A stretch of 64,000 bases of DNA, taken from positions 32,001-96,000 of the IMG/VR virus record IMGVR_UViG_3300025924_000017; one strand, written 5' to 3'. This stretch comes from a virus. Taxonomy: Duplodnaviria; Caudoviricetes. The translations under genes and the position numbers were made by a program. Shown here piece by piece: positions 14,541 through 32,902 of this stretch (position 1 is its first letter; every line of letters starts with the position of its first letter). Under the pieces are notes generated by a model. It saw nothing but the letters and a program-made list of their open reading frames with translations, searched no databases and was not told the DNA's origin.

Positions 14541-15176
14541 CCCAAGCACGCGGGCGTTTACCAACGCCGCGAATAGGTTAACGGGTGGGACTTTTGAGAT
14601 TGCGTCTCACTACGCGTTAACCAATGACGCGACTAGGTTAACGAGGCCCATCCGGGCCGTTTACCAAGGCGCGATCTGGGTTAATGCCGCCGCCCAGCCG
14701 AAGGCGGCGAGCGCGATGGTGGCGACGGCGAGGAGCGGGGCGAGTTCGAGCAGCCGGATGGTCATGACGCGATCTCTACCGCGCCTGTCCGCGTTCGTCA
14801 ACAGACTGCCGCGATCTGCGGCACCCGGGCACCACCGCGTCGCGATCCCGGACACCCATGTCATAGATCAGCGATTTCGTGACACATCGCCGAAATGCGC
14901 AACAAAAACAAGGCACTCTGCCATTCCTATGGCTGTGGCCCAAAAGTCATCCCGCAGTGCAGCATCAAGATGTTGTAGTTCCTGACAGTCTGTCAGCACA
15001 GGCCGACCGTCACGACACTCCTTGACAAAATCCTAGACCTGTGACCCGGCGATGTCACCTTTCCGGGCTTTCGTGACCTCGAAATGTCCGGATTTGGCCG
15101 GGAAATGTCCGGATTCGGCCCAAAATCCCCGTTTTCCGCCTCAAAATCCGGGCAAATCGTGTCCGGATACGTCCGG

Positions 15177-15392
15177 ATACCGTGCGCGAGCGCATTGTCC
15201 GGCTGGTCCTACCGCGCGCGAGATCGATCTCTACCGCGCGCAGGCGCATTTGGGCGCCCGGGCCTACCGTGCGCGCCTTCGTTGTCCGGCTGGCCCTACC
15301 GCGCGCAGAATCGTTCTCTACCGTGCGCGCTCGCGTTCTGTGGCGCGTCCTATCGTGCGCGATCTCATTGTCCGGCGCGCCCTACCGCGCGC
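15177..15392 (+). repeat. phased CTACCGYGCGC array (8 copies)
   Basis: starts 15177, 15209, 15231, 15264, 15296, 15318, 15350, 15382. Confidence 0.85.
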
Positions 15393-15564
15393 TGGCGCAT
15401 TAACCGGCGCGGGCACAACCTTAACGGCCGTTAACCTTTCGAGGTCATTGGTTAACGCCCGCCCGCCAGCCCGCTTGCGTTAACCAATTGCCGTCATTGG
15501 TTAACGGCCCTTCAGCGCCCGGCGTTAACCAATTGCCAGCATTGGTTACCGGCCCCGGCGGCGG

Positions 15565-15882
15565 TCACAGACGGCGCACCGCGCCGTCCGCCCCGATCTC
15601 GAACCGGGTCGAAACCTTGGTGCGCTCGAAGAAAGTCCGCTGCCCAGCCAGAATCTCGGCATCCGTGCCGTGATCGACGTCGCCGGGGGCCGGGTCTATG
15701 ACGATATCGCGCCACGGGACCGGCTTGTCATTGTTCACCTTGCGGACTTCGCGCTTCACCGCCGCGCAGATGGCGCGCCAGCGCAGCCCGGGCGCGCAGC
15801 GGAACAGGGCCACGATAGGCCAGTCCGGAACGTTACCCGACAAGACCAGCAGATAGCGTTCCTTGGTCATTTGGCCTCCCAT
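15565..15882 (-). CDS. hypothetical protein
   Basis: last gene of a - strand unit ending at the palindrome cluster. Confidence 0.65.
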   Translation of the reverse strand: MGGQMTKERYLLVLSGNVPDWPIVALFRCAPGLRWRAICAAVKREVRKVNNDKPVPWRDIVIDPAPGDVDHGTDAEILAGQRTFFERTKVSTRFEIGADGAVRRL

Positions 15883-16055
15883 GTCGTGCAGGTTTCACCC
15901 TCCAGCGGTCCCACCGCCATGCGTTCGCGGTTGCCATAGCGCAGCGAGTAGGGCAGGCGTTCCGCAGGCCACGTACAGAGACCCAGCGCCTCCGCCGGGT
16001 CATCGTCCGGCGCGAAGTCCGGGTCGAACCATTTGCAGGTCCCGCAGGTCTTCAT
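15867..16055 (-). CDS. small Cys-rich protein (CGTCKWF...GLC)
   Basis: typical phage CxxC-W-F motif; coupled. Confidence 0.7.
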   Translation of the reverse strand: MKTCGTCKWFDPDFAPDDDPAEALGLCTWPAERLPYSLRYGNRERMAVGPLEGETCTTWEAK

Positions 16056-16354
16056 GCCGTCACCGCCGCGCGTACGATCTCCAGATTACGCCCGGCGCGC
16101 TCGCAGGCGTCGGCGAGTTCCAGCGCCTTGACGCGGTCGCCCGCATCCCGGGCCGCCAGCGCGCGGCCTCCGAAGTCGCGCACCTGCCGGGTGAACGTGT
16201 CCAAGAGGAACGTTGCCAGCGGGTCGCGACTCCTGATCTCGACCGCCCGCTTATGCAGCGCGCGGCCGTGTTCCTCGGCTTGCGCCGCGAAGGCGTTTTC
16301 GACCGATGCCCGCAGGCGTGTGCCGAGGGTGCCTGTCATGCGCACGCGGGCCAC
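16052..16354 (-). CDS. hypothetical protein
   Basis: ATGA coupling with downstream ORF. Confidence 0.55.
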   Translation of the reverse strand: MARVRMTGTLGTRLRASVENAFAAQAEEHGRALHKRAVEIRSRDPLATFLLDTFTRQVRDFGGRALAARDAGDRVKALELADACERAGRNLEIVRAAVTA

Positions 16355-16572
16355 GCAGCGATGCGAGCCTCCTGCCGGGCCATCCGCGCGGCAGCACCCA
16401 CCACAAGCGCGGCGAGCGCGCCGGTCGGCGTGTGTCCGTTGCGGCGCAAACGTGCCACCGTGTTCAATAGCCCGGCGGTAGACCCGCGCGGGGTCTCGAC
16501 CGGCGCGTAATGGATCAGGCAGGCGTCTGCCGCCCCGTAGCGTGTGATGCTATCGCGTTTCCAGCGGGTCAT
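16336..16572 (-). CDS. hypothetical protein
   Basis: ATG 16572 just after upstream stop. Confidence 0.45.
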   Translation of the reverse strand: MTRWKRDSITRYGAADACLIHYAPVETPRGSTAGLLNTVARLRRNGHTPTGALAALVVGAAARMARQEARIAAWPACA

Positions 16573-16576
16573 GCGA

Positions 16577-16969
16577 TCACTGCCCCGGCGCGAGATAGAA
16601 CCGAATCCACTGCGCCACGACCGGGCCATTACCCTTGAAGCCGTCCTCGGACGCTTCCGCCACCCGGGCGATTTCGTCCCATGACTGGTCCGCGCCATCG
16701 GTCGCGAACTGAGCCGCCGCCTCGTGCACGTAATTCGACCCGTAACCGGTCAGCGGGTTTGCCAGAAACGCTCCGCAATTTTCGCAGTGCTGGGGCGTAT
16801 CCGCCTCACCGCCTCCGTAGGAGTAGGGGCCTTTTGGGAACGCATCCGACTCATAGGTGACTTCGTCCGCGATGTTGGCGGGCGCTTTGCCCTCGGCGGT
16901 CAGATCACGCCGGATGGCATTGCCGCAATCTTCACAGTAGAGCGCGGCCCGGTAGACAAAAGCTTTCAT
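16577..16969 (-). CDS. hypothetical protein (YCEDC...FPKGPY..GGGEADTPQHCENC...NPLT)
   Basis: ATG is part of the CGGAGTCGCAAATG leader. Confidence 0.85.
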   Translation of the reverse strand: MKAFVYRAALYCEDCGNAIRRDLTAEGKAPANIADEVTYESDAFPKGPYSYGGGEADTPQHCENCGAFLANPLTGYGSNYVHEAAAQFATDGADQSWDEIARVAEASEDGFKGNGPVVAQWIRFYLAPGQ

Positions 16970-17091
16970 TTGCGACTCCGTTGGTTCTTGATTGTGCGCC
17001 CTTGTAGCATGGAATTATTTTGTCTGTCAAGGGTTGACAGTTCAGATTTCGCCGTGCTAGAACAGCGTCACAACGAAAAACGGAGTCGCGA
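16970..17091. promoter_or_regulatory. divergent sigma70 promoter pair
   Basis: ttattttgtctgtcaagggTTGACA; -10 GCTAGAAC (+) and GCTACAAG (-). Confidence 0.85.
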
Positions 17092-17301
17092 ATGAAACGG
17101 AAAGGTGTAACGGGTTTGAAACTGTGGCGCGCCCGCGTCCAGAAAGTCTACGCCTCGCTGGCCGAACTGCGGGCCTATGACGAGACGTTCGAGATCGTGA
17201 AGCGCTGCGGCTATCGCAACGCGGAATCGCTGTGGAACGCCAACCCCCTATTGCAGGGTTCGACCCACCCGGCGGATTTTGGAGTCGCAAATGCACACTG
17301 A
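17092..17301 (+). CDS. hypothetical protein
   Basis: leader-preceded ATG. Confidence 0.8.
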   Translation: MKRKGVTGLKLWRARVQKVYASLAELRAYDETFEIVKRCGYRNAESLWNANPLLQGSTHPADFGVANAH

Positions 17302-17491
17302 CGAATTCTGCAAGACCTTGGACGCCTTGGATCGCGCGGACGCGATCAAGGCCATTCACGCCGCTTTCCTCCAACTGAGCGCGATGGGCGTGCAGGTCGA
17401 AGTCAACGGCACGACCTATGACAATGAGCCCGCCATCTCGCGGCTGAAAGCCTGCATGGTCTCCGCCGGTCACATCGGGTTCACGTCATGA
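17291..17491 (+). CDS. hypothetical protein
   Basis: leader GGAGTCGCAAATG embedded in the 3' end of the upstream gene. Confidence 0.75.
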   Translation: MHTDEFCKTLDALDRADAIKAIHAAFLQLSAMGVQVEVNGTTYDNEPAISRLKACMVSAGHIGFTS

Positions 17492-17790
17492 CGGCGCGCC
17501 GGGGCACACGCTCGATCCTGCCGAACAGCAACAGCGCCATCCTCGCGCCGATGGCTTACGGGCTACAAGTCCGCTGGCACGAAGAACTGGACTCGCATGT
17601 GCTCTACCACGGCGAGCAGCGCGTGGCGGGCCATCACAACGGCTTTTCCTGCCACGAACTCGCCAAGCGCATCCTGTCCGGCAATGCCGAACGCGCGACG
17701 GCGCAATTCGACTACATCACCGCGTGTGGCGGTCAGCATTACATCACACACGAAGCCTTCGCAACCATCCTCACAGGAGTCACACACTGA
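17488..17790 (+). CDS. hypothetical protein
   Basis: ATGA coupling. Confidence 0.7.
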   Translation: MTARRGTRSILPNSNSAILAPMAYGLQVRWHEELDSHVLYHGEQRVAGHHNGFSCHELAKRILSGNAERATAQFDYITACGGQHYITHEAFATILTGVTH

Positions 17791-17791
17791 C

Positions 17792-17917
17792 ATGCATACC
17801 CGGCACCACGGCCACGGCCATCACGGTGGCGCGGGCTTCGCGCTCCTCGCCTTCATCCCCGGCTATCGGTTTTTCCTGATGCTGATGGCCTTGATCGTGA
17901 TGTGCGGCGGGACGTGA
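17792..17917 (+). CDS. His-rich single-TM microprotein (paralogue 1)
   Basis: MHTRHHGHGHHGGAGFALLAFIPGYRFFLMLMALIVMCGGT. Confidence 0.75.
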   Translation: MHTRHHGHGHHGGAGFALLAFIPGYRFFLMLMALIVMCGGT

Positions 17918-18128
17918 TCCCACCGCCGTCCGGCACTTGCGTTAACTGTTCGCGGCGATTGGTAAACGCGGGCGAACCGCCGGGCTCAGTCCTCCGGGTA
18001 TGTGGTGGCGCGCGCCGCCTTGTCCCACGAGTAGACATGGAACGCGCGATCAGTTGGGAGAATGAGCCTCATCAACTGGTAAGAGGCCTCAAGATCAATC
18101 GCGCGGGCCAATGCTTCGTATAGGGCTT

Positions 18129-18479
18129 TCATGCGGCGGCGCGCGCCTCGCGTACGACCTCAGCCCATAACGCCTTGCACTCGGCGCGATGCTTCGCCGC
18201 CGCCCCGGGCGTGAACTGGGATTCGAAACTGTCACAGCCCTTCATGAGTTTCCCCAACTGATTGTTGAGCGCGATGGACTCAAAAAGCCCGGTGGTTTTG
18301 TCGCCCGCATTGCGCATGCGGCCCGTGTAGACGATCCAGAGGAAGTCCACGCCCTCAGTTTTGTCATAGGCCGCTTGCCACGCTTCGGGCGTGCCAGCCT
18401 TCACGGCTTCCATGTGGAAGTGTGCGATGGTTTCCGCCAGCACACCCTCACCCAGCAAAAAATCGGCGTGGGACTTCAT
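18129..18479 (-). CDS. hypothetical protein
   Basis: ATGA coupling. Confidence 0.7.
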   Translation of the reverse strand: MKSHADFLLGEGVLAETIAHFHMEAVKAGTPEAWQAAYDKTEGVDFLWIVYTGRMRNAGDKTTGLFESIALNNQLGKLMKGCDSFESQFTPGAAAKHRAECKALWAEVVREARAAA

Positions 18480-18649
18480 GCGGCGGCCTTGTCATACTGG
18501 ATTTTGACGCCGAGACCCTTCGCCTCCCGGTACCACACCGGGTAGATCGAGACCGCTCCCCACGGTTTTGTCTCCGTGACCCAGTAGGTCCACTTCAAGC
18601 GCTCGCTCGGCAACCGCCGATAAGCACGCACCAGAAATTCCGATTTCAT
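18476..18649 (-). CDS. hypothetical protein
   Basis: leader-preceded ATG (MKSEFLVRAY...). Confidence 0.8.
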   Translation of the reverse strand: MKSEFLVRAYRRLPSERLKWTYWVTETKPWGAVSIYPVWYREAKGLGVKIQYDKAAA

Positions 18650-18774
18650 TTGCGACTCCGTGTGTGTTGTTGTGCCGGTCTTATCGCATAAAAGATTTTG
18701 TCCGTCAAGTGTTGACATTCACAAAGCGCCCGGCTATAACCACGCCACAACAACGAACCAACACGGAGTCGCAA
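18650..18774. promoter_or_regulatory. divergent sigma70 promoter pair
   Basis: ttttgtccgtcaagtgTTGACA; GCTATAAC (+), GCGATAAG (-). Confidence 0.85.
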
Positions 18775-19281
18775 GTGAATCACGAACTCAGGATCAAATA
18801 CGGCACTAGCCGCGCCGCCAATACCTACGGTTACGGGCTTGTGAGCCTGTACGACGGCGGTAAGAAAGTCGCGGCCTGCAACGGCGGCGGTTACGACATG
18901 CGCGGGACGGTGTTCGGCGAATGGCTCGAAAAGACCTATCAGGAACGCCTCGTCGCGCTGGCGAAGGCAACCAAGGGCGCATTTGCGCGCGCCAACTGGA
19001 ACGGCGAACTGGGTGACGAGTCGAATTACGTCCGCCTCCCCGCTGATCGCAAGGTCGAGCTTTACGGCGGCACCTATTACGAGAACGGCAGCCGCGAGAG
19101 CGTTCACGGCCGCAAGGGTGCCCAGAAATACATCGCCAAGCCGCCGCATGTGACGTTGGATGGCGGTTGCGGGTTCGAGTCGATTTACCGGATCGCCAAG
19201 GCCATCGGCCTCAACGTCCGCACGGTTGACGCTGGGAAGAAACTCGACATCCTCCTGATCGAGGACACGAAACCCGGGTAA
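18775..19281 (+). CDS. hypothetical protein (GGGYDMRGT...LDGGCG motif)
   Basis: leader with GTG start. Confidence 0.85.
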   Translation: MNHELRIKYGTSRAANTYGYGLVSLYDGGKKVAACNGGGYDMRGTVFGEWLEKTYQERLVALAKATKGAFARANWNGELGDESNYVRLPADRKVELYGGTYYENGSRESVHGRKGAQKYIAKPPHVTLDGGCGFESIYRIAKAIGLNVRTVDAGKKLDILLIEDTKPG

Positions 19282-19359
19282 CAGTTGCGTCACGCCTGCG
19301 CCCTGCGTTCCCAAGACGCGCAGGCTTGACACTCCGGCGGATGCGCCCGCGAAGCCATC

Positions 19360-19410
19360 CGCAAGCCTGCCCCGGCGCTGGATCACTCCGGCGTCGGGGC
19401 TCTTTTTTCT
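19360..19410 (+). terminator. intrinsic terminator
   Basis: GC-rich stem gccccggcgc...gcgtcggggc followed by a T-run. Confidence 0.6.
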
Positions 19411-19462
19411 TGGGATGTTAACCAGTCGCGTCGATTGGTAAACGCGGGTGGCGCGGGCGCGC

Positions 19463-19846
19463 TCAGGTGATCTCGCGCCCGGTGTCGGCACACACGACCG
19501 GCTCATCTTCCTCCGCCATGCAACCGAGCGCCACGACGCGCCAGCCATCGCGCAGATTGAGCCGGACGGCTTCGAGCACGTCGCGCAGGTGTGCGCGGAC
19601 CGCCTCATAGCTCAATATCTCGCCGTCCGAGGTCATGAAGAAACACTCATAGCCGCCGGGCCAAGCGAACTTGCCCGCGCGCAGGGCCGACTTGACCTGC
19701 TGCATCCCTTTCAGGCCCAGAACGAAGTCGCGGCCGTGCACCGCGTAAGCCGCACGCAGCGGCGGCAGCTTGTTCCAGTCCGTGACCCGGGTGTCGTAGA
19801 GATCGCCGCCGGTCGCGACGAACAGGTGATCTGGCAGCTTGCTCAT
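19463..19846 (-). CDS. hypothetical protein (AWPGGY..FFMTSDG family)
   Basis: ATGA-coupled; recurrent phage early-region motif. Confidence 0.75.
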   Translation of the reverse strand: MSKLPDHLFVATGGDLYDTRVTDWNKLPPLRAAYAVHGRDFVLGLKGMQQVKSALRAGKFAWPGGYECFFMTSDGEILSYEAVRAHLRDVLEAVRLNLRDGWRVVALGCMAEEDEPVVCADTGREIT

Positions 19847-20187
19847 AGCAGCACCGTGACCAGTGTCGGCGTGCGCGCTGAGTCCTCTTCCTTGCGGCTG
19901 TCGTAGGGCGTGCGGCCGAGCGCGAACGCCATGACGTCGAACTGTGGGCAATCGCGACCGCCGTTCTTGATGGTCCTGCCACTGTCATGGAAGCACACGT
20001 CCACGCAATCCGCCGGGCCGCCCTTGACATAGGGCTGGAACGCAAACGTCACGCGTTTGCCGTTGCTGAGCTTGGCGGTGATCGTATAGTTGCCATCCGG
20101 AACTTCCACGCACAGATGCGGGTTGGCGTTGAACCCGGCGAAACCCGCCGCGACCGCCTCGTCTTGGGATGCTTCCTTGAAATTCAT
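19843..20187 (-). CDS. hypothetical protein
   Basis: leader-preceded ATG. Confidence 0.8.
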   Translation of the reverse strand: MNFKEASQDEAVAAGFAGFNANPHLCVEVPDGNYTITAKLSNGKRVTFAFQPYVKGGPADCVDVCFHDSGRTIKNGGRDCPQFDVMAFALGRTPYDSRKEEDSARTPTLVTVLL

Positions 20188-20302
20188 TTGCGACTCCGTT
20201 TGTTGTGCGCCTCTTATAGCAGCAATTATTTTGTCCGTCAAGTGTTGACATTCAAAAATGTCCGGGCTATAACGGCCGCAACAAACACAAACGGAGTCGC
20301 AA
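20188..20302. promoter_or_regulatory. divergent sigma70 promoter pair
   Basis: ttattttgtccgtcaagtgTTGACA; GCTATAAC (+), GCTATAAG (-). Confidence 0.9.
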
Positions 20303-20731
20303 ATGGCAAAGCTTTCTGCAAACGGCCGCACGATTGTTGGCAGCATCGATTACATCGCCAGCACAAAGCGCGTCATGTCCGATGGCGTCATTCTGGAGAA
20401 CAAGGGCCACGGCTGGAAGGTCGCGGGCAAGGTGAAGCCGGGCTTCACACCCGAGCAGGCTTTCACGCAGGGCAAGGCCAAGCATGAAGCCACACTCGCC
20501 GCGCGTCCTGCGTTGGCGGCCTATCGCGCCGCCCTGCATGACGCCTGCGGGCTCGCCAAGCGCTGGGCGCTCCACACCGCGATCACCTTGATGCCGGACG
20601 ACCCGGATGGCGTGTGGTCGAACTGCGTGGACAGCTATCCCAAAGTCGATGCGGACCTCGATGACATCGTGAGGCTTTGCGGGCTCTACACCCGCGCCAA
20701 GGCAGAGAAGGAGGAGGCGGCGGTCGCGTAA
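20303..20731 (+). CDS. hypothetical protein
   Basis: leader-preceded ATG. Confidence 0.85.
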   Translation: MAKLSANGRTIVGSIDYIASTKRVMSDGVILENKGHGWKVAGKVKPGFTPEQAFTQGKAKHEATLAARPALAAYRAALHDACGLAKRWALHTAITLMPDDPDGVWSNCVDSYPKVDADLDDIVRLCGLYTRAKAEKEEAAVA

Positions 20732-20817
20732 GCGCCGCCAGCGCGCACGTTTACCAATTGCGGAGATTGGTTACCGCGCGGTATGCGGGCGCGGGGCTCC
20801 AAGCCGCGCCGGTTTGG

Positions 20818-21234
20818 TCAACAATCCGGATCGAAGTCGTGCCACTCCTGCACCTCGTCGGGCTGGCCGTCGTGCTCGTATTCGCCTTCGCCCTCCGGGG
20901 CCAGTAGGGTGGCATCCTGTTCCGGGTCCACGCCAATCTCATGATCGACCGGAAAGCCGCATGAGAAGCCGGACTCGAAGTCCACGCGGATGCAGTGTGC
21001 GCCCTCGTACTCGACTTTCTCGACGGTCTCGAACTCGAACTGGAATTCGGGATGCTCGCTCTTCAGTTGCGGGCTCTCCTCCTTGTTCTCGCACGCGTCG
21101 AAATAAGCTTCGTCGGCGAACCGATCCGCTTCAAGGTCGCAACGCTGGCCGACGCGCAACTGATTCACCCGGCACTTGACGACGCCTTGCCGCTCGACCG
21201 TGTTGACCGTGTTCGATCCGTCGCCCCGGCTCAT
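20818..21234 (-). CDS. acidic protein ending DGQPDEVQEWHDFDPDC
   Basis: ATGA coupling; C-terminal motif common in phage proteins. Confidence 0.75.
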   Translation of the reverse strand: MSRGDGSNTVNTVERQGVVKCRVNQLRVGQRCDLEADRFADEAYFDACENKEESPQLKSEHPEFQFEFETVEKVEYEGAHCIRVDFESGFSCGFPVDHEIGVDPEQDATLLAPEGEGEYEHDGQPDEVQEWHDFDPDC

Positions 21235-21967: not shown

Positions 21968-21968
21968 T

Positions 21969-24965: not shown

Positions 24966-24981
24966 CCGGCGACGTGGCGAC

Positions 24982-25588: not shown

Positions 25589-25603
25589 GGGCCGATCAGG
25601 TCC

Positions 25604-25640: not shown

Positions 25641-25693
25641 TTTGCGTTGGTCGCGTTAACCAGTCACCGCAATTGGTAAACGCGCGCGCCGCC

Positions 25694-26175: not shown

Positions 26176-26291
26176 TTGCGACTCCGTTTGTTTGCAGGCA
26201 CCTTATCGCATAAAACATTTTGTCTGTCAACAGTTGACAATTCAAATTCTGCCGTGCTATAGAGGCGGCACAAACAGAAACGGAGTCGCAA
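26176..26291. promoter_or_regulatory. divergent sigma70 promoter pair
   Basis: ttttgtctgtcaacagTTGACA; GCTATAGA (+), GCGATAAG (-). Confidence 0.85.
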
Positions 26292-26684
26292 ATGAAGTAT
26301 GCAGTCAATGAACAAGGGCAGGTCACCTGCGACGGCGAGCCTATGCTCGTACTCGCGCAGGCCGTTTGGGGCGATGGTGCGCCGAGCGCCGCCGCCCGGG
26401 ATGTTGCCCAGCAGCGCGCCAAAGACGCTTTCAAGGCGCTGGAGTTGATCGAACGCCTCGCCCGCATGGGTTTTTACGCCTACCCGGACGGCGAAAGCTT
26501 TTCCGACGCGCAGGCCGAAGACGCGCTGGTCGTGCTCAACCAGATGATCGAGAACGCGCGCAAGCTTGCCCCGGATGCAGTCCCCGGCCCATATATCACG
26601 ACCGGGCACGACCTCGACGGCGACGGGCCTTGGTATGCGCCGGGCATCGGCGAAGTCGAAGCCCCGCAGGAGGATCAGCCATGA
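26292..26684 (+). CDS. hypothetical protein
   Basis: leader-preceded ATG. Confidence 0.8.
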   Translation: MKYAVNEQGQVTCDGEPMLVLAQAVWGDGAPSAAARDVAQQRAKDAFKALELIERLARMGFYAYPDGESFSDAQAEDALVVLNQMIENARKLAPDAVPGPYITTGHDLDGDGPWYAPGIGEVEAPQEDQP

Positions 26685-26749
26685 TCTAGCACGACGGCGA
26701 AGTCCTCGACCTCGGTTTGCGTTCCACAGCGGAACGCCGACCGGGCTGA
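26681..26749 (+). pseudogene. relic paralogue of 27271..27429
   Basis: MI*HDGEVLDL vs MPYHDGEVLGL (TAG in place of TAC) plus shared cgccgaccggg. Confidence 0.6.
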
Positions 26750-26829
26750 GGCCCTTAACCAATTACCGCAACCGGTTAACGCCCGCGACGAGAGAGGGCA
26801 GCGCGGCCTTACGACCGCGCTGGACCTCC

Positions 26830-26994
26830 TCACTCCATTTCCTCTGCCCCATCCTGCACCGTGTGCGCGGTAATGTCGTAACGCTCTAGTTGCGCGTTCA
26901 CGGCATCCATTGCAGCACCGACGCCGGTCTCTGCTTCGCTCCTTGAGTCCGCCGCGATCACGAACGCGACCGTAACAATGAACTGTTTTCCCAT
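26830..26994 (-). CDS. small hypothetical protein (54 aa)
   Basis: leader-preceded MGKQFIVTVAFVIAADS... Confidence 0.75.
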   Translation of the reverse strand: MGKQFIVTVAFVIAADSRSEAETGVGAAMDAVNAQLERYDITAHTVQDGAEEME

Positions 26995-27116
26995 TTGCGA
27001 CTCCGTTGTTTGTTTTCAGTACGGTTGGTATAGCACGACGGATTCTAAAATGTCAACACTTGACGGACAGAATAATTTGTGCGATAAGGTTCGCACAACA
27101 ACCAACGGAGTCGCAA
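26995..27116. promoter_or_regulatory. divergent promoter pair, core inverted
   Basis: tgtcaacacTTGACGgacagaataa is the reverse complement of the core; GCGATAAG (+), GCTATACC (-). Confidence 0.85.
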
Positions 27117-27284
27117 ATGAAGTATGATTTTCGGACAGCCGACAACGCCGCTAAGCCCCACGTCGCTGTTGTGGAAGTGGAGAGCGGCGAGACGGCTGCA
27201 ATTGTCTACATCAAAGACGGGAAAGTTGATGACGCTGAACGTCTGGCCGAGCTTTGCGTGGGGGTGTTCAATGCCCTACCATGA
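27117..27284 (+). CDS. small hypothetical protein
   Basis: leader-preceded ATG. Confidence 0.75.
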   Translation: MKYDFRTADNAAKPHVAVVEVESGETAAIVYIKDGKVDDAERLAELCVGVFNALP

Positions 27285-27429
27285 CGGCGAAGTCCTCGGC
27301 CTCGACGCTGACGGTTGTGTGATCCAGTGGGACGCCGACCGGGGCGCGGCCTACAATTCCGGCGAGACGCTGGAAGAGTTCGGCGCGGACAATCTGCGCG
27401 CCCACGAACGCGGGAGGCTGGGCCTATGA
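27271..27429 (+). CDS. small hypothetical protein
   Basis: MPYHDGEVLGLDADG... Confidence 0.65.
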   Translation: MPYHDGEVLGLDADGCVIQWDADRGAAYNSGETLEEFGADNLRAHERGRLGL

Positions 27430-27632
27430 GCAGTTGGATTTATCGCGTCGAGCTAAACGCACGCAAGGCCGGGGACATCGGCACGTTCACGCGCTGCACG
27501 TTCGATGTTATCGCCGAGCAGGCGCGCGGCGCGGATGGAGCGTACACCCGGGCCATCGCAAAGGCCACCGCGCACGGCTACGAAACACGCGGCGCAAATA
27601 GCGCTGTGCGTATGAGCGAGGTACACGCATGA
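27426..27632 (+). CDS. hypothetical protein
   Basis: ATGA coupling. Confidence 0.65.
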   Translation: MSSWIYRVELNARKAGDIGTFTRCTFDVIAEQARGADGAYTRAIAKATAHGYETRGANSAVRMSEVHA

Positions 27633-27805
27633 GCGAAGACGCGATCAGCGGCAAAGACATCCGCGAGTTCCGGCTCTACTTGAAGCAATGCACCGACCGG
27701 CAGGTTGAGGGCGTGTTCGAGCGTGAGAAGGCCGCAGGCCGGGAGACGTATATGGAACTTGCCCGCGCCGAGGCCGAGCACCGGGGCATTACCATCTGGG
27801 GCTGA
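27629..27805 (+). CDS. hypothetical protein (58 aa)
   Basis: ATGA coupling; MSEDAISGKDIREFRLYL... Confidence 0.65.
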   Translation: MSEDAISGKDIREFRLYLKQCTDRQVEGVFEREKAAGRETYMELARAEAEHRGITIWG

Positions 27806-27907
27806 CCACCATGTCATAAAATCCCCCAACTGTGACATGCCGAGTCAACGATTCCAACAGCTTAGGCCCTGCCTGTCACGTTTCACGAAACCTAGGAAAG
27901 GAAACCC

Positions 27908-28048
27908 ATGCATTCAGGCCATCACCGCCACCACGGCGGACATCATGGCGGGCACCACCTCGGCGCGCTCGCCTTCCTCGCCCTGCTTCCCGGCTATCGC
28001 TTCTTTTTGATGCTCGCCTTAGTCGTGGTCCTGTGCGGCGGCACCTGA
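27908..28048 (+). CDS. His-rich single-TM microprotein (paralogue 2)
   Basis: MHSGHHRHHGGHHGGHHLGALAFLALLPGYRFFLMLALVVVLCGGT; RBS aggaaagg. Confidence 0.75.
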   Translation: MHSGHHRHHGGHHGGHHLGALAFLALLPGYRFFLMLALVVVLCGGT

Positions 28049-28141
28049 TACTGTCATTCAAGGGTTGACAATTGACCCCGGCCGTGCGATAAGCCTTGCA
28101 ACGTCGGGATGACCCGGCGACAATCCAAACCGGAGTCGCAA

Positions 28142-28738
28142 ATGGCAAAAGAACAGTTCGCATTGCTCGCCGTGAATGAAACGGACAATTGGGACCAGTC
28201 CATTCTGGACAAGCACGGCTTTGAAGCCGCGTTCGGCGTCTACTTGATCCGCCTCGGCGAGGCCACGCATTGTTGCAGCCTCACCGCGTCAACGTGGGCC
28301 GAGTTTTACGAGAACGCCTTCATTTACGATCACGAAGACGCGGCGGCCGACAAAGCGGCGGAAGACCTCGCCCACGAGAACGGCGGCGAGTTCGGGCGCT
28401 ATCTCACCTACGTCGATCCTGACCAGAAGAGCCGCTACCTCGGCGCGGCGATCACGGTCGAAGTGGACGCGGATGAATTCGAAGGCGGCAAGAAATCCGA
28501 CGCCTATCACGAGGCAATCTGGACGGAAGCCCGCGAGGCCGCAGCCACCGGCGCGATCAGCGAACCGGCGATCCTGTGGAGCGAGGAATACTACGCCCAG
28601 CAGGAAGAGTACGCCGCCAAGCGACGCGCAGAGAACCGCAGGCCCTTGGCGCGCCCGATCCTGCCGTTGTTCTTCGCCGCCGCCCAGCGCGACGGATTCG
28701 CCACGTACGAAGGCGCAATCGAGCACGGCTGGCTTTGA
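28142..28738 (+). CDS. acidic hypothetical protein
   Basis: TTGACA/GCGATAAG promoter plus leader. Confidence 0.85.
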   Translation: MAKEQFALLAVNETDNWDQSILDKHGFEAAFGVYLIRLGEATHCCSLTASTWAEFYENAFIYDHEDAAADKAAEDLAHENGGEFGRYLTYVDPDQKSRYLGAAITVEVDADEFEGGKKSDAYHEAIWTEAREAAATGAISEPAILWSEEYYAQQEEYAAKRRAENRRPLARPILPLFFAAAQRDGFATYEGAIEHGWL

Positions 28739-29001
28739 TCCTGCGCGTGCCCTGCCACGGGCCACGCAGTACACCGGCCCGGCGCTGCCTGTCACGGCAC
28801 GCCGGGCCGGAGCATTTTGGGCGCATTATTTTGTCCTAAAGGTGTTGACAATTGGATTCCGCCCGGCTATAACACCGCCATGCCTCGCGGCGACAGAGCA
28901 GGACCTCTGGAAGGCGCGGCGCGAAGTCCTCCCGGGAAAGCCCGCCAGACGCGGGATCGCAGGGAGGCCGGGACACGCGGACCCGCCGATCTGCGCCGAG
29001 C

Positions 29002-29058
29002 CTACCTTGCGCGATATCGTGCGCTACCGTGCGCACTACCTTGCGCGCTACCGTTCGC
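29002..29058 (+). repeat. CTACCKYGCGC array (5 copies)
   Basis: starts 29002, 29014, 29024, 29036, 29048. Confidence 0.8.
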
Positions 29059-29238
29059 TGGCACGATCTGGGGCGCGCGCCGTCCGGCGCGGCCTGTGCC
29101 CGCGTTTACCAGTTGGAAGGATTGGTTAACGCCGCCTCGGAGTCCGCGTTAACCAATTGCGGCTATTGGTTAAGACCATCGCAAATTTTGTTAACCATAG
29201 GGCGTGCCGATCTGGCACGCCCACGATCTGCCGCGTGG

Positions 29239-29691
29239 CTAGGCGCTCTCCTCCTTTCGAGCCTTGACGCGCACGTAGGGCTTCTCCTCGTAGTGATCGA
29301 TCTTCTCGCCGGAGGGAAGGTCCCACGGCATGAGCATGAAGGTCACGCCAAAGGGATGGAATTCCGCGTTCTGGGGCGACAGGTTTTCAGCCTTCATGTA
29401 ACTGGCGATGTACCAGTCGCGCGCGTCACCCTCGAACGTGAAGCAGGTCTTGTTGGAGCGCAGACGATACGCAGGCAACGCGCCCACCAGATAGATGGCA
29501 TGATCCGTATAGGTGTCACCAGCCTTGAACTGCCCACGGCGCACGCCGTCCATCTCTGCCGTGTAGGTGTTCGTGCGATCATACTCCGCACCTTCGTAAG
29601 TCACACCACTGATCGTGACGGACACGGGCTTGATGTTGGAGAGATGGCCGAGGGATGCGAGGTAGGCCACGACGTTTGCGGAAACAGACAT
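29239..29691 (-). CDS. hypothetical protein
   Basis: leader-preceded ATG. Confidence 0.85.
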   Translation of the reverse strand: MSVSANVVAYLASLGHLSNIKPVSVTISGVTYEGAEYDRTNTYTAEMDGVRRGQFKAGDTYTDHAIYLVGALPAYRLRSNKTCFTFEGDARDWYIASYMKAENLSPQNAEFHPFGVTFMLMPWDLPSGEKIDHYEEKPYVRVKARKEESA

Positions 29692-29802
29692 TTGCGACTC
29701 CGTTGTTGTGCGCACTTTATGGCATGCCTTGTTTTGTCTGTCAAGGGTTGACATATAGAATTCTTCGCGCTATAACGGCAGCACAAACAAACGGAGTCGC
29801 AA
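29692..29802. promoter_or_regulatory. divergent sigma70 promoter pair
   Basis: ttgttttgtctgtcaagggTTGACA; GCTATAAC (+), GCCATAAA (-). Confidence 0.85.
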
Positions 29803-30198
29803 ATGATCTCACACGCAGACGTTCTCAAAATCGACCGCGCCATCTCCGGCAAGCTGGTCGAGCTTGCCATCGCCAAAGGCTACAGCCTGACCGTCCGCAC
29901 GAACGACGACGACGCGCACAACGTCATCAAGTCGCGCGATCCGAAGGTGATCCTCGACGAACTTCATTCCGTGGACGACGAGCGCCTCTATGTGCACGAT
30001 GCAAACGGAAAGCGCCTCGGCTGGATTTACTTCGTGTTCGGCGAATCCGGCTGGGACGTGATCTGCGATCACACCACAGGCCGGGCGATCACGGAACTGG
30101 TGGACACAGGCCCGATCAAGGCGATCTCGGATGGTATCTGCGAGAACCCGGAGAACTGGAGCGCGATACTCGCGCAGAACGGCGCGGCAGTCGGCTGA
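29803..30198 (+). CDS. hypothetical protein (GWIYFVFGESGWDVICD family)
   Basis: leader-preceded ATG. Confidence 0.85.
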   Translation: MISHADVLKIDRAISGKLVELAIAKGYSLTVRTNDDDAHNVIKSRDPKVILDELHSVDDERLYVHDANGKRLGWIYFVFGESGWDVICDHTTGRAITELVDTGPIKAISDGICENPENWSAILAQNGAAVG

Positions 30199-30200
30199 GC

Positions 30201-30267
30201 CTACGGCGCGCTACCGTTCGCTGGCGCGCTTCCTACCGTGCGCGCTACCTTGCGCTCTACCGTTCGC
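30201..30267 (+). repeat. CTACC array (5 copies)
   Basis: starts 30201, 30211, 30233, 30245, 30257. Confidence 0.8.
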
Positions 30268-30480
30268 TGGCGCGATCTGGGGCGCTGGCGCGCGCCAGCC
30301 CGGCGGCGGCGGTATGGTTAACGAAAATCGCCCCGGCGTTAACCAATTCAGTGTATTGGTTAACGCGCCGTTAACCACGTCGGCGCCCTGTCCCGATCTG
30401 GCACAAACGCGTCGAGGCGCAAGCGGCTGAGCCGCTTGCGCCTCGCGTAGGGTTTGGAGTGCGGCGCCGCGCCGCGCGGA

Positions 30481-30693
30481 CTAGTGGGCCGTCATACTCG
30501 GATCGAGTCGGACGCGTTCCAGTGTAACGAGTGCGCCTGACTCGGACTCGGCGATGAGTGCCAAGCATTGCCCGGCCATGAGTGCGGCGCGCGCATGCTT
30601 GAAATTGTCGCGCGCGTCGCCCGCCGCGCTATCGCCCGTGAAAGGGGTTGTAACCCGCTCGCGTCCCTCAGAAAGTTCAACGTGATATTTCAT
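30481..30693 (-). CDS. hypothetical protein
   Basis: leader-preceded ATG. Confidence 0.75.
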   Translation of the reverse strand: MKYHVELSEGRERVTTPFTGDSAAGDARDNFKHARAALMAGQCLALIAESESGALVTLERVRLDPSMTAH

Positions 30694-30946
30694 TTGCGAC
30701 TCCGTTTGCCTGTCGCGCGACTATCGCCGCGACACGTGAAAGCTAAGCCCGGCATTGTCGCAAGTCAAGGCATTAGAGTCGTAATTCGCGACATTCTTTC
30801 CAAGCGGTAAAAGCCCGCTCCCTTAACCCGGCATTATCCGACAATTGCGCACCACAATTATTTTGTCTTTAGACCGTTGACAATTCAAACAAGGGGATTA
30901 GATTGATGGTCACGGCGTTAGGCCGGAATGACAAACGGAGTCGCAA

Positions 30947-31078
30947 ATGAAAATCGCATTTTTCTCCATCGCCCTGTTTATCAGCTTTCAAGCTGGGGTT
31001 TCCTCGTATGTCGCGGACAAGGTTGGCGCGGAAATTACGCGCGACTTCGCGCCGCTCAATGCTATCTTCCAGCACTAA
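30947..31078 (+). CDS. small signal-peptide/membrane protein
   Basis: leader-preceded MKIAFFSIALFISFQAG... Confidence 0.7.
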   Translation: MKIAFFSIALFISFQAGVSSYVADKVGAEITRDFAPLNAIFQH

Positions 31079-31088
31079 GGGGGACACA

Positions 31089-31478
31089 ATGCGTAACGCT
31101 TATCTGACATTCCCGAATCAGTCGAATGACGGAATCTCCTTTACGAAACCTGAGGGACGATTCGGCAATCTCAAGGCGCGCCTTGAGAAAAGCCTTGTCC
31201 GCGCATTTGGCGGATTCACCGCAACCCGCGCGGATGGGGCTTGGCACGATGTCGAGACTGACATCGTGCATGCCGAGTCCGTGACGGTCTATAAAATCGC
31301 GGGCGATTGGAGCACGGAAAACGAGTCCAAGCTTCGCGGTATCGCGGCGCGCTATTGCGCACTCGGCGAGCAAATTTGCGTGCTGGTCGAATTCGCCAAC
31401 GGCGAGTCGGAATTCATTTCGCCGGAGGCTGATCTAGCTGCAACGCTTGGCAGCGCGCGCGCCTTGTTGGCGGCTTAG
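31089..31478 (+). CDS. hypothetical protein (FGGFT..ADGAW motif, DUF3574/PII-like?)
   Basis: RBS ggggga upstream of ATG. Confidence 0.7.
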   Translation: MRNAYLTFPNQSNDGISFTKPEGRFGNLKARLEKSLVRAFGGFTATRADGAWHDVETDIVHAESVTVYKIAGDWSTENESKLRGIAARYCALGEQICVLVEFANGESEFISPEADLAATLGSARALLAA

Positions 31479-31533
31479 TCGAAACCAAGGCGCGCCGCAT
31501 AGTGCGGCGCGCCGCAACCCTACGGAGTCGCAA

Positions 31534-31677
31534 ATGTCCAGTTATCTGACCCTTGAGCCGCGCCCAATCCTGAAAGCCTTGGCGCACTATGCGGCGAATA
31601 CGCGTGCAAGCGAAGTTGCGCGATTGGAGCGAGTCGCAAAGCTTGCGGCGCGCTATTGCGCCAAAGGCGCGGACTAA
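31534..31677 (+). CDS. small hypothetical protein
   Basis: leader-preceded ATG. Confidence 0.7.
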   Translation: MSSYLTLEPRPILKALAHYAANTRASEVARLERVAKLAARYCAKGAD

Positions 31678-31812
31678 GCCCGCGTTAGTGTCCTGTTTAC
31701 CGAGTCGCGCATGCGGTAAATTATTTTGTCTTGCATGCGTTGACATTTGGAAAGCCCGGGCTTAGCTTTCGTGTGTCGCGGCGATTGTGTCGCGCAAATT
31801 TTGGAGTCGCAA

Positions 31813-32160
31813 ATGTCCAAGCCTTCTGATGCCAAAGATAACAGAGTCCGCGAATTGGCACGCGTGCGGGATATGCTGGCTGATGCCGCAAGCTTCGCTT
31901 CAACGGCTGACGCCGTGCTAGTCGAAGTTGCGGCCAAAGGGGTCAAGCATGCGTTGCAATGGACCAAGGGGACACGCGTTACGGACCAAAGGCTAGTCCG
32001 CGATTATGCCCGCGTTCTCGACGTCTCAACGCATGGCAAGCGGACTCCGCTTACGCTCGCCTTGCGCGCCTTTGGTCAAGCCTTGGACAATTTCGCGCGG
32101 ACTGATTACGCGGCTGCGCAATCCGACCTTGCCATGACAGAACGTCTCCTGAAACCCTGA
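31813..32160 (+). CDS. hypothetical protein
   Basis: promoter core ~31719 plus leader. Confidence 0.8.
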   Translation: MSKPSDAKDNRVRELARVRDMLADAASFASTADAVLVEVAAKGVKHALQWTKGTRVTDQRLVRDYARVLDVSTHGKRTPLTLALRAFGQALDNFARTDYAAAQSDLAMTERLLKP

Positions 32161-32181
32161 GGCGCAAGGCGCGGCACAAAC

Positions 32182-32213
32182 AAGGCGCGGCGATATCGCC
32201 GCGCCTTTTTGCT
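32182..32213 (+). terminator. intrinsic terminator
   Basis: aaggcgcggcg-atat-cgccgcgcctt followed by ttt. Confidence 0.75.
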
Positions 32214-32447
32214 TTAGAGCCGCTAGGAACGTTCCAGAGAGGCGCGCCGCAATCGGCCGCCACGATAGGACGCGCGCCGCTTGCGCCTGTCAGTGACGCG
32301 CTAATGAGGCGCGCCGCATGCGATAACCCAACGTTCACTATTCGCGACACTGGCAAAAATAAATGGCACGCGAGTGTTGACAATACAGATTGCGGGTTTA
32401 GATTGATGGTCACGCGGCGATTGCCGCGCCAACAAACGGAGTCGCAA

Positions 32448-32675
32448 ATGCAAAAATTCATTCCCGCTAATCCGAATGCAAACGCTTTCGACGCGCGCGA
32501 CGTCGCGCGCGAAAATGCGGACTTTGGCGAGTCGATTGATCGCGGGCTCGACGCGATCCGCGCGGGCTTGGTCCGCGCCCAAACGGCAGGCATGGCGCGC
32601 CGCTGGGAACTCGCAATGGCAGCGGCCGTAGGTATCGCGGCGTTTGCCCTTCTGTCCCATTACGGGATTGTCTAA
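32448..32675 (+). CDS. hypothetical protein with C-terminal TM
   Basis: leader-preceded ATG. Confidence 0.75.
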   Translation: MQKFIPANPNANAFDARDVARENADFGESIDRGLDAIRAGLVRAQTAGMARRWELAMAAAVGIAAFALLSHYGIV

Positions 32676-32902
32676 GGGTTAACGCCGTCCCAAAAAGAGA
32701 CAACGAGGGGACCCAAGGGGGCACCCCGTTGTCTCATTTTTGGACGGCCGCGTCCGGTGCGTACGGATCGCGCAGTATTTTTGAAATCATCCGCCTACGG
32801 ACATTCAGAGCCGACCCGGCAGAAAAAAAAAAACGAGGGCAGGGGACCCGGCCCCACCCCCGTTGTTCGCGTACCCCTCCGAAAAGACACTCTTCGGACG
32901 AT

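Follow-up and report, generated by a model that had tools for sequence, protein, structure and literature searches.

A probable hyperplastic early-gene region of standard-part cassettes in the terL-portal interval of a phiCbK-like jumbo phage

The interval between the large terminase gene (terL) and the portal gene of a phiCbK-like phage is filled with small genes set among repeated regulatory motifs, which raises the question of what such an array is and how its cassettes are rearranged. The window analysed, a stretch of 64,000 nucleotides, belongs to a 225.6-kb phage record whose TerL is 53% identical to that of phiCbK. The left anchor of the array is terL (11805-14540, plus strand), a 911-aa ORF 52.7% identical to the TerL of phiCbK-like Caulobacter phages. 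On the right, synteny is anchored by a Peptidase_C93-like gene outside the array (33181-33945, minus strand), which is a homologue of phiCbK gp41, and by the portal gene (34459-36276, plus strand), which is 54% identical to the portal of the relative G001 and syntenic with phiCbK gp42. The array fills the 19.9 kb between the terL end (14540) and the portal start (34459). Judged by these similarities, the phage is a distant phiCbK-like jumbo siphophage with an alphaproteobacterium as its predicted host. The array is probably a hyperplastic early-gene region in which about 25 short transcription units are assembled from standard parts and whole cassettes would be shuffled by homologous recombination.

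The promoter core (TTGTC..TCAA..GTTGACA) is present in 14 copies, against 0.19 expected. Two of these lie on the minus strand (24001 and 27051), in line with the two flipped cores of the initial annotation, and the eight intact divergent modules that it described were all recovered, together with several one-sided ones; seven of the eight gaps measure 111-125 bp. The first module (16970-17091) has back-to-back promoters and a leader on each strand, and the second and third (18650-18774 and 20188-20302) carry leader and promoter matches in the divergent gap. The plus-strand 5' UTR is long in the fourth (21492-21724); the fifth, sixth, and eighth (22948-23068, 26176-26291, and 29692-29802) are divergent gaps with promoters, and in the seventh (26995-27116) the core is flipped relative to the other modules. 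For the one-sided type, an example is the plus-strand promoter and leader at 28065-28144, which drives a gene (28142-28738) conserved in the relatives L110 and L195. The promoters fit the RpoD consensus TTGaCgS / GCtANAWC, which is that of Caulobacter (PMC8144410), and 20 of the 25 genome-wide matches to the promoter pattern fall in the block, which is 8% of the genome. The sequence match supports their assignment to the host-RpoD type. Most of them stand back to back with the -35 elements TTGACA and TTGACGG 3 bp apart, and the AT-rich spacer of each could act as an upstream element of the opposite promoter. A right sub-block (30691-32675) comprises five leader-led units (leaders at 30691 on the minus strand and at 30937, 31524, 31803, and 32438 on the plus strand) with ordinary terminators, no palindromes, and a second promoter class (-10 TAGATT) that is present also in L110.

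The 13-nt leader, GGAGTCGCAAATG, occurs 25 times in the window at up to one mismatch (23 copies exact; 0.13 expected by chance) and 26 times genome-wide, with only one copy outside the terL-portal block. A called gene begins at all 25 leaders, 24 of these genes being first in their unit and one (17281) second in its operon. The latter leader had been described as stranded in a gene end; its position is indeed within the final codons of ORF 17092-17301, yet it starts the gene 17291-17491. For the most part, downstream genes overlap the stop of the gene before them and have no strong SD, and the later genes of each unit are translationally coupled. The 5' UTR, CA-rich and unstructured, ends in the leader as an invariant initiation region for only the first gene of the unit. 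Among four contigs (the window, L110, L200, and L195) 43 of 46 leader copies are identical; in another relative, L113, the spacer is different and GGAGTCG is retained. Full invariance across phages whose TerL differs by 33% suggests direct recognition by a trans-acting factor, such as one for early-mRNA shutoff or for translation, or reading via the GANTC site of the leader. Homologues of RegA, RegB, and a CcrM-type methyltransferase were looked for as candidates and none was found. We infer that factors reading the leader and the palindrome exist.

The cargo is almost entirely made of rapidly turning-over ORFans, and the 20 largest cargo proteins returned no informative Pfam or PHROG function. 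The cargo ORFs had been called unrelated apart from duplicated His-rich genes, and all-vs-all blastp agrees on both counts, yielding a single paralogue pair: His-rich small membrane peptides of 41 and 46 aa (17792-17917 and 27908-28048, both plus strand). A candidate pseudogene site at 26681 consists of only an SD followed by ATG-ATC-TAG. By analogy, the cargo probably represents host-takeover or counter-defence proteins. We infer early timing for the cassette units, whose products would be made immediately after DNA entry by the unmodified host RNA polymerase.

The third repeated motif is the palindrome GTTWACCART-N7-AYTGGTWAAC, with 16 copies at up to three mismatches (0.00 expected) and 17 at up to four. 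All lie within 14556-30364 and none elsewhere in the 225-kb genome. The copy numbers of promoter core, leader, and palindrome are far above chance, and the observation of shared motifs is confirmed. The palindrome is found in 9 of 9 convergent gaps (14.5-30.5 kb) and in three tandem gaps, and in no divergent gap. Three tandem copies (14556-14685; starts 14556, 14616, and 14659) directly follow the terL stop. They are succeeded by an 800-bp non-coding, repeat-dense region (14766-15564, plus strand), in which a TACCGTGCGC-type cluster (15178-15360) precedes palindromes at 15430, 15479, and 15524; this composite element is present in L110, L113, and L195. Convergent gaps hold palindromes at 17941-17967, 20749-20775, 22244-22270, and 26754-26780, and the copy at 19417-19443 stands 17 nt after a canonical GC-hairpin and T-run terminator (19369-19400). 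Two plus-strand tandem boundaries show the parts in series: at 23788-24066 a hairpin (~23788-23826), a palindrome (23836-23862), a flipped one-sided promoter (24010-24038), and a leader (24054-24066), and at 24981-25144 a hairpin (~24981-25017), a palindrome (25029-25055), a promoter pair (25057-25117), and a leader (25132-25144). A hairpin (~25604-25640) and a palindrome (25655-25681) make up the element at 25604-25681. The plus-strand segment 28845-29174, whose RNA fold has z = -1.0, contains a consensus promoter without leader (28845-28873), a second TACCGTGCGC-type cluster (29003-29058), and palindromes at 29104 and 29148. A third such cluster (30212-30267) accompanies the last palindrome (30338-30364) at 30212-30364 on the plus strand, the right limit of the palindrome-bearing sub-block; here 30233-30285 is 94% identical to 29024-29076.

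This phage-specific 10-7-10 palindrome stands at each unit boundary of the left 16 kb, and the GC hairpins at unit ends, some with T-runs, would act as the terminators proper. The initial annotation had included a loop-matched terminator in the grammar. GC hairpins with leader-complementary loops containing TTGCGAC(TC) do exist, but in three copies only (~23788-23826, ~24981-25017, and ~25604-25640), and they are not a general part. A possible, though rather unlikely, alternative is that the palindromes themselves are RNA-level elements, that is, bidirectional hairpin terminators or 3'-end stabilisers of convergent units, which would reduce the grammar to just promoter, leader, and terminator. 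They mark every convergent unit end, are absent from promoters, and can each fold into a 10-11-bp stem with a 7-nt loop, and the position 9 series A-T, G-T, A-C, G-C would fit wobble intermediates on either strand. However, the palindrome has no U-tract, its stem is rich in AT although the genome has 60% GC, and beside it lie separate GC hairpins (one of them with a T-run) that have the appearance of the true terminators. The arms show no covariation, the 82.1% of cells paired being equal to the shuffled mean, and position 4 varies without compensation, with uncompensated T-T or A-A in 10 of 27 copies (10 of 32 in a larger set). Moreover, arm conservation goes far beyond the requirement of a stem, and in L113 the half-site GTTAACC occurs as direct as well as inverted repeats. 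The lack of covariation speaks for a protein half-site rather than a hairpin under selection; the two arms behave as half-sites conserved independently of each other, and the palindrome is more likely the site of a dimeric DNA-binding protein (a boundary or insulator, or a packaging or ejection signal).

Metagenomic relatives carry the same grammar with other cargo. For example, L110 (TerL 67% identical in amino acids) contains 12 copies of the identical leader, together with palindromes of the same family and related promoters, but window homologues exist for only 8 of its 20 array genes (24-59% identity), and one of these is inverted. Likewise, G001/L113 have variant forms of the grammar and 4-5 cargo genes in common with the window, in a terL-portal gap of 9.8 kb against 19.9 kb. 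The breakpoints of cargo change had been predicted to fall at the motifs, and the comparison of relatives upheld this in the two events resolved, one cassette indel and one ORF replacement. L200 and L110, which are 97-98.7% identical on both flanks, differ by an extra 2-kb cassette pair between promoter-module direct repeats, with the crossover inside a common 24-bp promoter core. L195 is homologous to L110 up to the leader ATG, has an unrelated ORF, and is homologous again from the 3' repeat/palindrome cluster. Since nearly every gap contains a motif, gene-level breakpoints would in part be expected to lie close to one anyway. Breakpoints at promoter and leader repeats are consistent with homologous recombination, which would delete, insert, or swap whole cassettes with expression kept intact because the regulatory parts are repeated.

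It is doubtful that this regularity is instead a historical trace, in which tandem and inverted duplication multiplied a single cassette, its cargo was later replaced, and the leader was kept identical via gene conversion. Recombination can homogenise repeated modules and is demonstrated between modules by L200/L110, but conversion would homogenise a whole module rather than 13 nt. The promoter portions are 60-89% identical among modules, against the near-uniform leader adjoining them, and L113 keeps GGAGTCG despite its changed spacer. Less probable again is the view that the palindromes and the GTTAAC enrichment are sites of a host regulator, for example CtrA (TTAA-N7-TTAAC or TTAACCAT), coupling the early steps of infection to the cell cycle of the host. 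The arms do contain TTAAC and resemble a CtrA half-site, all the phiCbK-like phages examined show a strong concentration of GTTAAC in the terL-portal region (here 42 of the 52 copies in the genome), and the repeated promoter of phiCbK and L111 has a TTAA-N7-TTAAC-like box. Nevertheless, the array has a single full CtrA box (30359), the TTAA elements of the palindrome are spaced by 17 instead of 7 nt, and its repeats are in inverted rather than direct orientation. In 185,579 prokaryote genomes the exact palindrome consensus yielded only three chance-level matches, and it is therefore not a host operator as such.

The least probable reading takes the palindromes as lox- or dif-like core sites of a small orphan tyrosine recombinase of the phage, inverting or excising cassettes as in an integron or shufflon: their 10/11-7-10/11 layout is typical of such sites, they are confined to the array at cassette boundaries, the L110 spacers are fairly uniform ([A/C]GCGCCG in 6-7 of 9 copies), and the genome has a 249-aa Phage_integrase-family ORF (genome 144211-144795), but neither resolved event has a junction in a palindrome spacer (one crossover falls inside the promoter core, one at the leader ATG, and the other ORF-swap junction in the 3' repeat/palindrome cluster), spacers differ between most window sites and would thereby prevent strand exchange, position 4 varies among the half-sites, sites occur in tandem triplets, and the recombinase gene is ~80 kb away. 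The phiCbK homologue of this ORF, gp143, has no known substrate (PMC3556154). Integron attC and lox/dif systems share with the array the imperfect palindrome at the cassette 3' end, the inverted arms, the 7-bp spacer, and a tyrosine recombinase in the same genome; the array differs in its bidirectional cassettes with promoters of their own, its distant recombinase, its heterogeneous spacers, and the position of its rearrangement junctions.

The array had been taken for an undescribed kind of system, which does not hold, since shuffling promoter-early stem-loop (PeSL) cassettes of promoter, terminator, and SD are already published for T4-type phages (Arbiol et al., 2010, PMC2839356; Comeau et al., 2014, PMC4122927). 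In both, repeated sigma70-consensus early promoters are joined to a stem-loop and to an SD/start; these combinations cluster upstream of ORFans in hyperplastic regions, and indel or replacement junctions between related phages lie in the repeated motif, attributed to homologous recombination. However, PeSL is a single unidirectional composite with the stem-loop in or next to the promoter, whereas the array has back-to-back divergent promoter pairs, a palindrome without hairpin covariation at the far (3') unit end, an invariant 13-nt initiation region, and a jumbo siphophage of an alphaproteobacterium as its carrier. T5 pre-early genes sit in a terminal repeat, and by synteny the array, in likeness to those of SPO1 and T5, would lie beside or inside a long direct terminal repeat. 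The SPO1 module (primary description by Stewart et al., 1998) is outlined in PMC6873191 as a terminal-region cluster spanning 12-18 kb, where ~25 small early genes are divided among many short operons whose promoters and ribosome-binding sites are typical of very high expression. The array resembles it in its probable terminal-region position, gene number, short operons, and type of promoters and ribosome-binding sites, but has no sequence similarity to it, and that module summary contains no counterpart of the palindrome family or the invariant leader.

The closest positional likeness is to phiCbK and Colossus, which form one family with this phage by TerL and portal similarity and have in common the slot of terL, ORFan block, peptidase, and portal, with a repeat-dense non-coding stretch after terL. 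In contrast, phiCbK genes 1-39 are all on one strand, its repeated promoter is a different one (GTTAACC-TTTT-GTTAAC...CTAGGGT), and the leader and the 10-7-10 palindrome are absent from its region; neither motif family is mentioned by Gill et al. (2012, PMC3556154). Hence, the array grammar is clade-specific, and terminal-repeat boundaries are not directly transferable. The long terminal repeat of phiCbK-like phages starts in or just after terL (at terL codon 652 in phiCbK, just downstream of terL in Colossus) and spans 10-17 kb (PMC3556154), so that the placement of the block at a phiCbK-like terminal-repeat site was correct as to position, in the terL-portal slot. A location next to or inside such a repeat is supported by synteny, and the window phage would be terminally redundant; the record is classed 'linear' and has no end repeats, which is neutral either way on a collapsed terminal repeat. 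At least one cargo gene is common to the CcrSwift and Rogue terminal repeats: 24064-24756 has homologues within the terminal repeats annotated for CcrSwift, Rogue, and BL64.

The array of about 25 small transcription units (cassettes) fills the interval between terL and portal in a siphophage distantly related to phiCbK, as judged from the genes that anchor it. The TerL gene (11805-14540) encodes a protein with 52.7% identity to TerL of phiCbK-like Caulobacter phages and ~50% identity to that of Brevundimonas jumbo phages, the portal gene starts at 34459, and a minus-strand Peptidase_C93-like gene (33181-33945) matches phiCbK gp41. The window takes in bases 32001-96000 of an IMG/VR virus record that is 225,611 bp long, is rated as complete by CheckV, and has no end repeats. 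Against 50,697 phage records, a megablast search with the block gave a single match, 175 bp of terL, an annotated near relative being absent from that collection, and an Rfam search over 14-34.5 kb (E <= 0.1) gave zero matches.

The initial annotation described an array of shared parts, and the counts of these parts are indeed far above expectation. The 13-nt translation-initiation sequence, or leader (GGAGTCGCAAATG), is present in 25 copies in the window (<=1 mismatch) against 0.13 expected, and 1 of its 26 genome-wide copies lies beyond the block. The promoter core occurs in 14 copies against 0.19 expected, including the two reported as flipped, which lie on the other strand (24001 and 27051). 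The 27-bp palindrome (GTTWACCART-N7-AYTGGTWAAC) has 16-17 copies against 0.00 expected, all between 14556 and 30364, with zero elsewhere in the genome. Gene calling with a codon-usage model that had been trained on long genes of this phage gave ~55 small genes in the block, and a called gene starts at each of the 25 leaders. In 24 cases this is the first gene of its unit; the leader at 17281, earlier taken to be stranded in a gene end, starts the second gene of its operon. Downstream genes mostly begin before the preceding gene has ended, overlapping its stop codon, and have no strong SD, a sign of translational coupling. Promoter pairs occupy the divergent gaps (111-125 bp in seven of the eight), from which palindromes are absent, while the convergent gaps from 14.5 to 30.5 kb, nine in number, each hold one to three palindromes, as do three tandem gaps. 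The distance from the promoters to the hairpins and palindromes, which stand at the units' 3' ends, is 0.4-1.5 kb.

In each divergent module two -35 hexamers stand back to back with 3 bp between them; one strand has TTGACGG and the opposite strand TTGACA, and 14 nt separate each hexamer from a GCTATAAG or GCTATAAC element. About 20 promoters fit TTGAC(A/G)-N14-16-GCTATAAC/G, a match at the sequence level to the form of the Caulobacter RpoD consensus, TTGaCgS / GCtANAWC (PMC8144410), and 20 of the 25 matches to this pattern in the genome are inside the block. In view of this match, the array units would most simply be read by unmodified host RNA polymerase and, by extension, could be transcribed immediately after DNA entry. 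At its right end (30.7-32.7 kb), the block shows a second promoter class with the -10 sequence TAGATT, ordinary GC-hairpin/T-run terminators, and zero palindromes. These promoters (TTGACA-N16-TAGATT and then GATGGTCACG, at 30877-30904 and 32377-32404) serve the right-hand units and are early-type by sequence; the class is also kept in L110, a contig of a related phage (~9640 and ~10260), and its occurrence goes together with a lack of palindromes.

Among the window modules, the promoter parts share 60-89% mutual identity, and the adjoining leader is identical in 43 of the 46 copies collected from four contigs (the window, L110, L200, and L195). Every base of the leader seems to be under direct selection, because gene conversion would not end at 13 nt. 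In L113, a contig of the lineage represented by G001, the spacer of the leader is changed and GGAGTCG and the CA-rich tract are kept. The TCGCAA part goes beyond what a 4-nt SD explains, and we hypothesize a common trans-acting reader of the leader. Such a reader might act as a switch in translation or RNA decay by which all early units are silenced at once via their first cistron, in the manner of T4 RegA/RegB. Homologues of RegA and RegB had no matches in the genome, which are weak negatives as the controls of both searches matched nowhere. Alternatively, the reader might recognize the CcrM site embedded in the leader, as every copy (e.g., 20293-20305) holds GAGTC, a GANTC methylation site overlapping the SD; a CcrM-type or N6/N4 methyltransferase found no match in the phage genome. 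The leader also has a counterpart in three GC-rich terminator-like hairpins at unit ends (~23788-23826, 24981-25017, and 25604-25640), the loops of which, TTGCGAC(TC), complement its GAGTCGCAA. These hairpins might be remnants of leaders, antisense elements, or decoys. The loop-matched terminator proposed earlier as a standard part therefore stands as far as the leader-complementary loops are concerned, and falls short as a recurring part with just three copies, two of which are duplicates.

The palindrome is best read, in our favoured interpretation, as two independently conserved half-sites for a dimeric, probably phage-encoded, DNA-binding protein, for which an XRE protein encoded at genome 9801-9965 is one candidate. 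The arms are paired in 82.1% of cells across 32 copies from five contigs, which equals the shuffled mean and is reached by 253 of 500 shuffles, with a covariation score of 0.080 (0.086 in shuffles). At position 4 either arm varies uncompensated, with T-T or A-A in 10 of 27 copies. The arms are AT-rich with no T-run/U-tract after them, the true GC hairpins adjoining, and L113 also has the half-site directly repeated with 15-bp spacing. The absence of covariation, the uncompensated position, the AT-rich arms without a U-tract, the direct repeats, and the absence of the consensus from prokaryotes together argue for the dimeric protein. A role as an RNA hairpin is conceivable yet finds no support here, and a selected RNA or DNA hairpin was rejected for want of compensatory changes, both pairing and covariation being at the shuffled level.

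A site-specific role is much less probable. The palindromes are confined to the array and stand at every cassette boundary, and their inverted arms of 10/11 bp around a 7-bp spacer resemble what might be the core sites of the phage's minimal orphan tyrosine recombinase, which is of the phiCbK gp143 type and is encoded ~80 kb from the array (genome 144211-144795); the substrate of this small recombinase in phiCbK is unknown (PMC3556154). However, the palindrome spacers are heterogeneous and neither of the two resolved rearrangement junctions falls inside one, so that we consider this reading a long shot. If it were true, a virulent jumbo phage would possess an integron- or shufflon-like site-specific system, in which self-expressing early cassettes are inverted, excised, or captured on top of homologous recombination at the promoter repeats. 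An intrinsic (Rho-independent) terminator was rejected because the palindrome has neither GC-rich stem nor U-tract, and a terminator scan did not pick up the palindromes, its reported matches being the separate GC hairpins. A host operator was dismissed as the exact consensus has 3 chance-level matches in 185,579 prokaryote genomes, and a CtrA box (the direct repeat TTAA-N7-TTAAC) as the TTAA elements of the palindrome are 17 nt apart and its arms inverted. One CtrA-type box exists in the genome, at window position 30359. The hexamer GTTAAC occurs 52 times in the genome, of which 42 are in the 18-kb array; the other 207 kb holds 10 against ~30 expected from base composition, and GTTAAC may therefore be avoided outside the array.

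Relatives of the array were found by exact-motif scanning of IMG/VR, which gave one more many-leader contig (L012/L110, 11.2 kb), and by a palindrome scan of metagenomes, which gave three short fragments (L200, L195, and L213). L110 encodes a TerL 67% identical to that of the window and carries the leader in twelve identical copies, along with palindromes of the same family and related promoters. Eight of its 20 array genes have window homologues (24-59% identity), and the shared genes are mostly collinear, with one inverted and one behind an additional leader-proximal gene. The G001/L113 lineage possesses variants of every part, which include a leader ending in GGAGTCGAGCACATG, half-sites of the form GTTAACC, repeats of TACCGTGCGC, and TTGACA promoters set back to back; the terL-portal gap of this lineage measures 9.8 kb versus 19.9 kb here, with 4-5 cargo genes (the small ORFs of the units) common to both.

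Two junctions among these contigs could be resolved at the base level. The flanks of L200 and L110 (5287-6196) are 97-98.7% identical, and L200 has an extra 2 kb, in which a palindrome separates two gene sets, lying between two direct copies of the promoter module. The single module of L110 corresponds to the left L200 copy through a shared 24-bp core and to the right copy beyond it, which by sequence is the product expected of homologous recombination in the promoter core. The 2-kb cassette pair looks like a presence/absence polymorphism between very close metagenomic phage genomes. L195 and L110 share 76-79% identity across the promoter and leader up to the ATG, the ORF is unrelated, and similarity resumes from the 3' TACCGTGCGC repeats through the palindromes. 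The earlier expectation that cassettes are shuffled with breakpoints at the motifs agrees with both cases, which are two events in an array with a motif in nearly every gap.

The cargo genes are mutually unrelated, as was stated earlier, except for one duplicated His-rich pair, the single paralogue pair in an all-against-all comparison. These 41- and 46-aa membrane peptides (17792-17917 and 27908-28048), with a His/Gly-rich N-terminus and one transmembrane helix, are conserved in L110 (6921-7049) and may be small metal-binding membrane proteins. Pfam returned DUF-level or unknown families and nothing informative for the 20 largest cargo proteins, PHROGs returned unknown-function families alone for the 10 largest, and the ESM Atlas gave viral hypothetical clusters alone. 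A blastx search of the gap at 26681 gave zero gene remnants and does not bear out the pseudogene placed there. At 26676-26689 there is an SD and then ATG-ATC-TAG, a two-codon frame overlapping the stop of gene 26292-26684, perhaps what is left of a coupled gene that was deleted. The cargo gene at 24064-24756 has homologues inside the annotated terminal repeats of CcrSwift, CcrRogue, BL64, and others, which links the block with the family's pool of terminal-repeat genes.

The position of the array also agrees with that of the long direct terminal repeats of phiCbK, which starts at terL codon 652 and spans 10.3 kb (Gill et al. 2012, PMC3556154), and of Colossus, which starts just downstream of terL and spans ~16.7 kb (PMC3556154). 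Clusters of TACCGTGCGC-type repeats of 10-12 nt lie on the terL strand at 15178-15360, 29003-29058, and 30212-30267 in the window, and in the relatives at 2233-2625 and 8420-8455 (L110) and at 13171-13535 and 19230 (L113). In all three phage lineages the clusters are always on the terL strand, are always followed by palindromes, and occur nowhere else in the genome; in the window the oriented repeats and palindromes form composites at 15.18-15.55, 29.0-29.17, and 30.21-30.36 kb. The clusters may mark terminal-repeat or packaging boundaries, and we suggest with low confidence that the composites delimit a terminal repeat of ~14-15 kb (~15.2-15.5 kb to ~29.0-30.4 kb).

The closest described system is that of the promoter-early stem-loop cassettes (PeSLs) of T4-like phages, in which a repeated sigma70 promoter, a stem-loop, and an SD flank the ORFans of hyperplastic regions and indels and swaps arise via homologous recombination (PMC2839356, PMC4122927). 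In PeSL systems, neighbouring motifs also recombine to give excised mini-circles. The array is a real and well-defined feature of interest to phage biologists, and no new category, though its four-part grammar was not recognised as described in the initial annotation. Like PeSLs, it has a repeated promoter matching the sigma70 consensus, an SD and ORFan start at the 3' edge of the motif (here the leader), a hyperplastic region (a gap of 9.8-19.9 kb with few shared genes), and, in two events, indel/replacement junctions in the motif. However, the stem-loop is fused to the promoter in PeSLs, whereas in the array hairpins and palindromes close the units on their 3' side. Further distinctions from known systems are the back-to-back pairing of promoters, the invariance of the leader, a half-site palindrome placed separately at the 3' boundaries, and a different host and phage type. 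The array may also be compared with the SPO1/T5-type host-takeover modules: it has the sequence features of a putatively early small-gene cluster, with host-type promoters and RBS predicted to be strong, and its position agrees with that of the terminal repeats of phiCbK and Colossus, with one cargo homologue in the annotated terminal repeats of relatives. It differs from integrons in that each cassette has its own promoter, the recombinase gene is ~80 kb off, and the resolved junctions are outside the palindrome spacers. The motifs are not mentioned in the published work on phiCbK-like phages that was examined.

The array thus offers an unusually clean natural example of standard parts, with a promoter pair, leader, and boundary element reused ~25 times around interchangeable ORFans. 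It extends the PeSL principle, in which repeats of regulatory sequence serve as handles for recombination, beyond T4-like myophages to the phiCbK-like siphophages that infect alphaproteobacteria, and the population-level junctions lend concrete support to modular exchange at regulatory repeats. The 13-nt leader conserved across divergent phages, the phage-specific palindrome, and the TACCGTGCGC cluster probably have dedicated readers, and these elements provide handles on early-gene control, on terminal-repeat formation in Caulobacter phages, and on the search for new host-takeover/counter-defence proteins. The promoter and leader are possible strong portable expression parts for Caulobacter-type hosts.

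In phiCbK (NC_019405), the genes of which are all on one strand, and in the 308-kb relative L111, a different promoter is repeated. Its promoter-like unit, GTTAACC-TTTT-GTTAAC...CTAGGGT, is found in phiCbK at 2296-2346, 2586-2636, 3972-4022, 5170-5220, and 6395-6445, and in L111 at 15725-22438, a terminal-repeat region as in phiCbK. The upstream half of the unit fits the CtrA box TTAA-N7-TTAAC, and this fit suggests that early promoters in phiCbK proper may be CtrA-dependent. Within the window, in the stretch 28845-29152, a consensus promoter at 28845 is without the standard leader, and its predicted +1 coincides with the ATG at 28880, which opens a 90-codon Arg-rich frame through the repeat cluster with a codon-usage score below the cutoff of the gene caller. 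The transcript might be a leaderless mRNA or might be non-coding; a structured ncRNA beyond this promoter was rejected, the fold z-score being just -1.0. The sole leader copy beyond the array (genome G000:C1:138882-138943) has a matching consensus promoter upstream, and is therefore a lone standard cassette outside the array.
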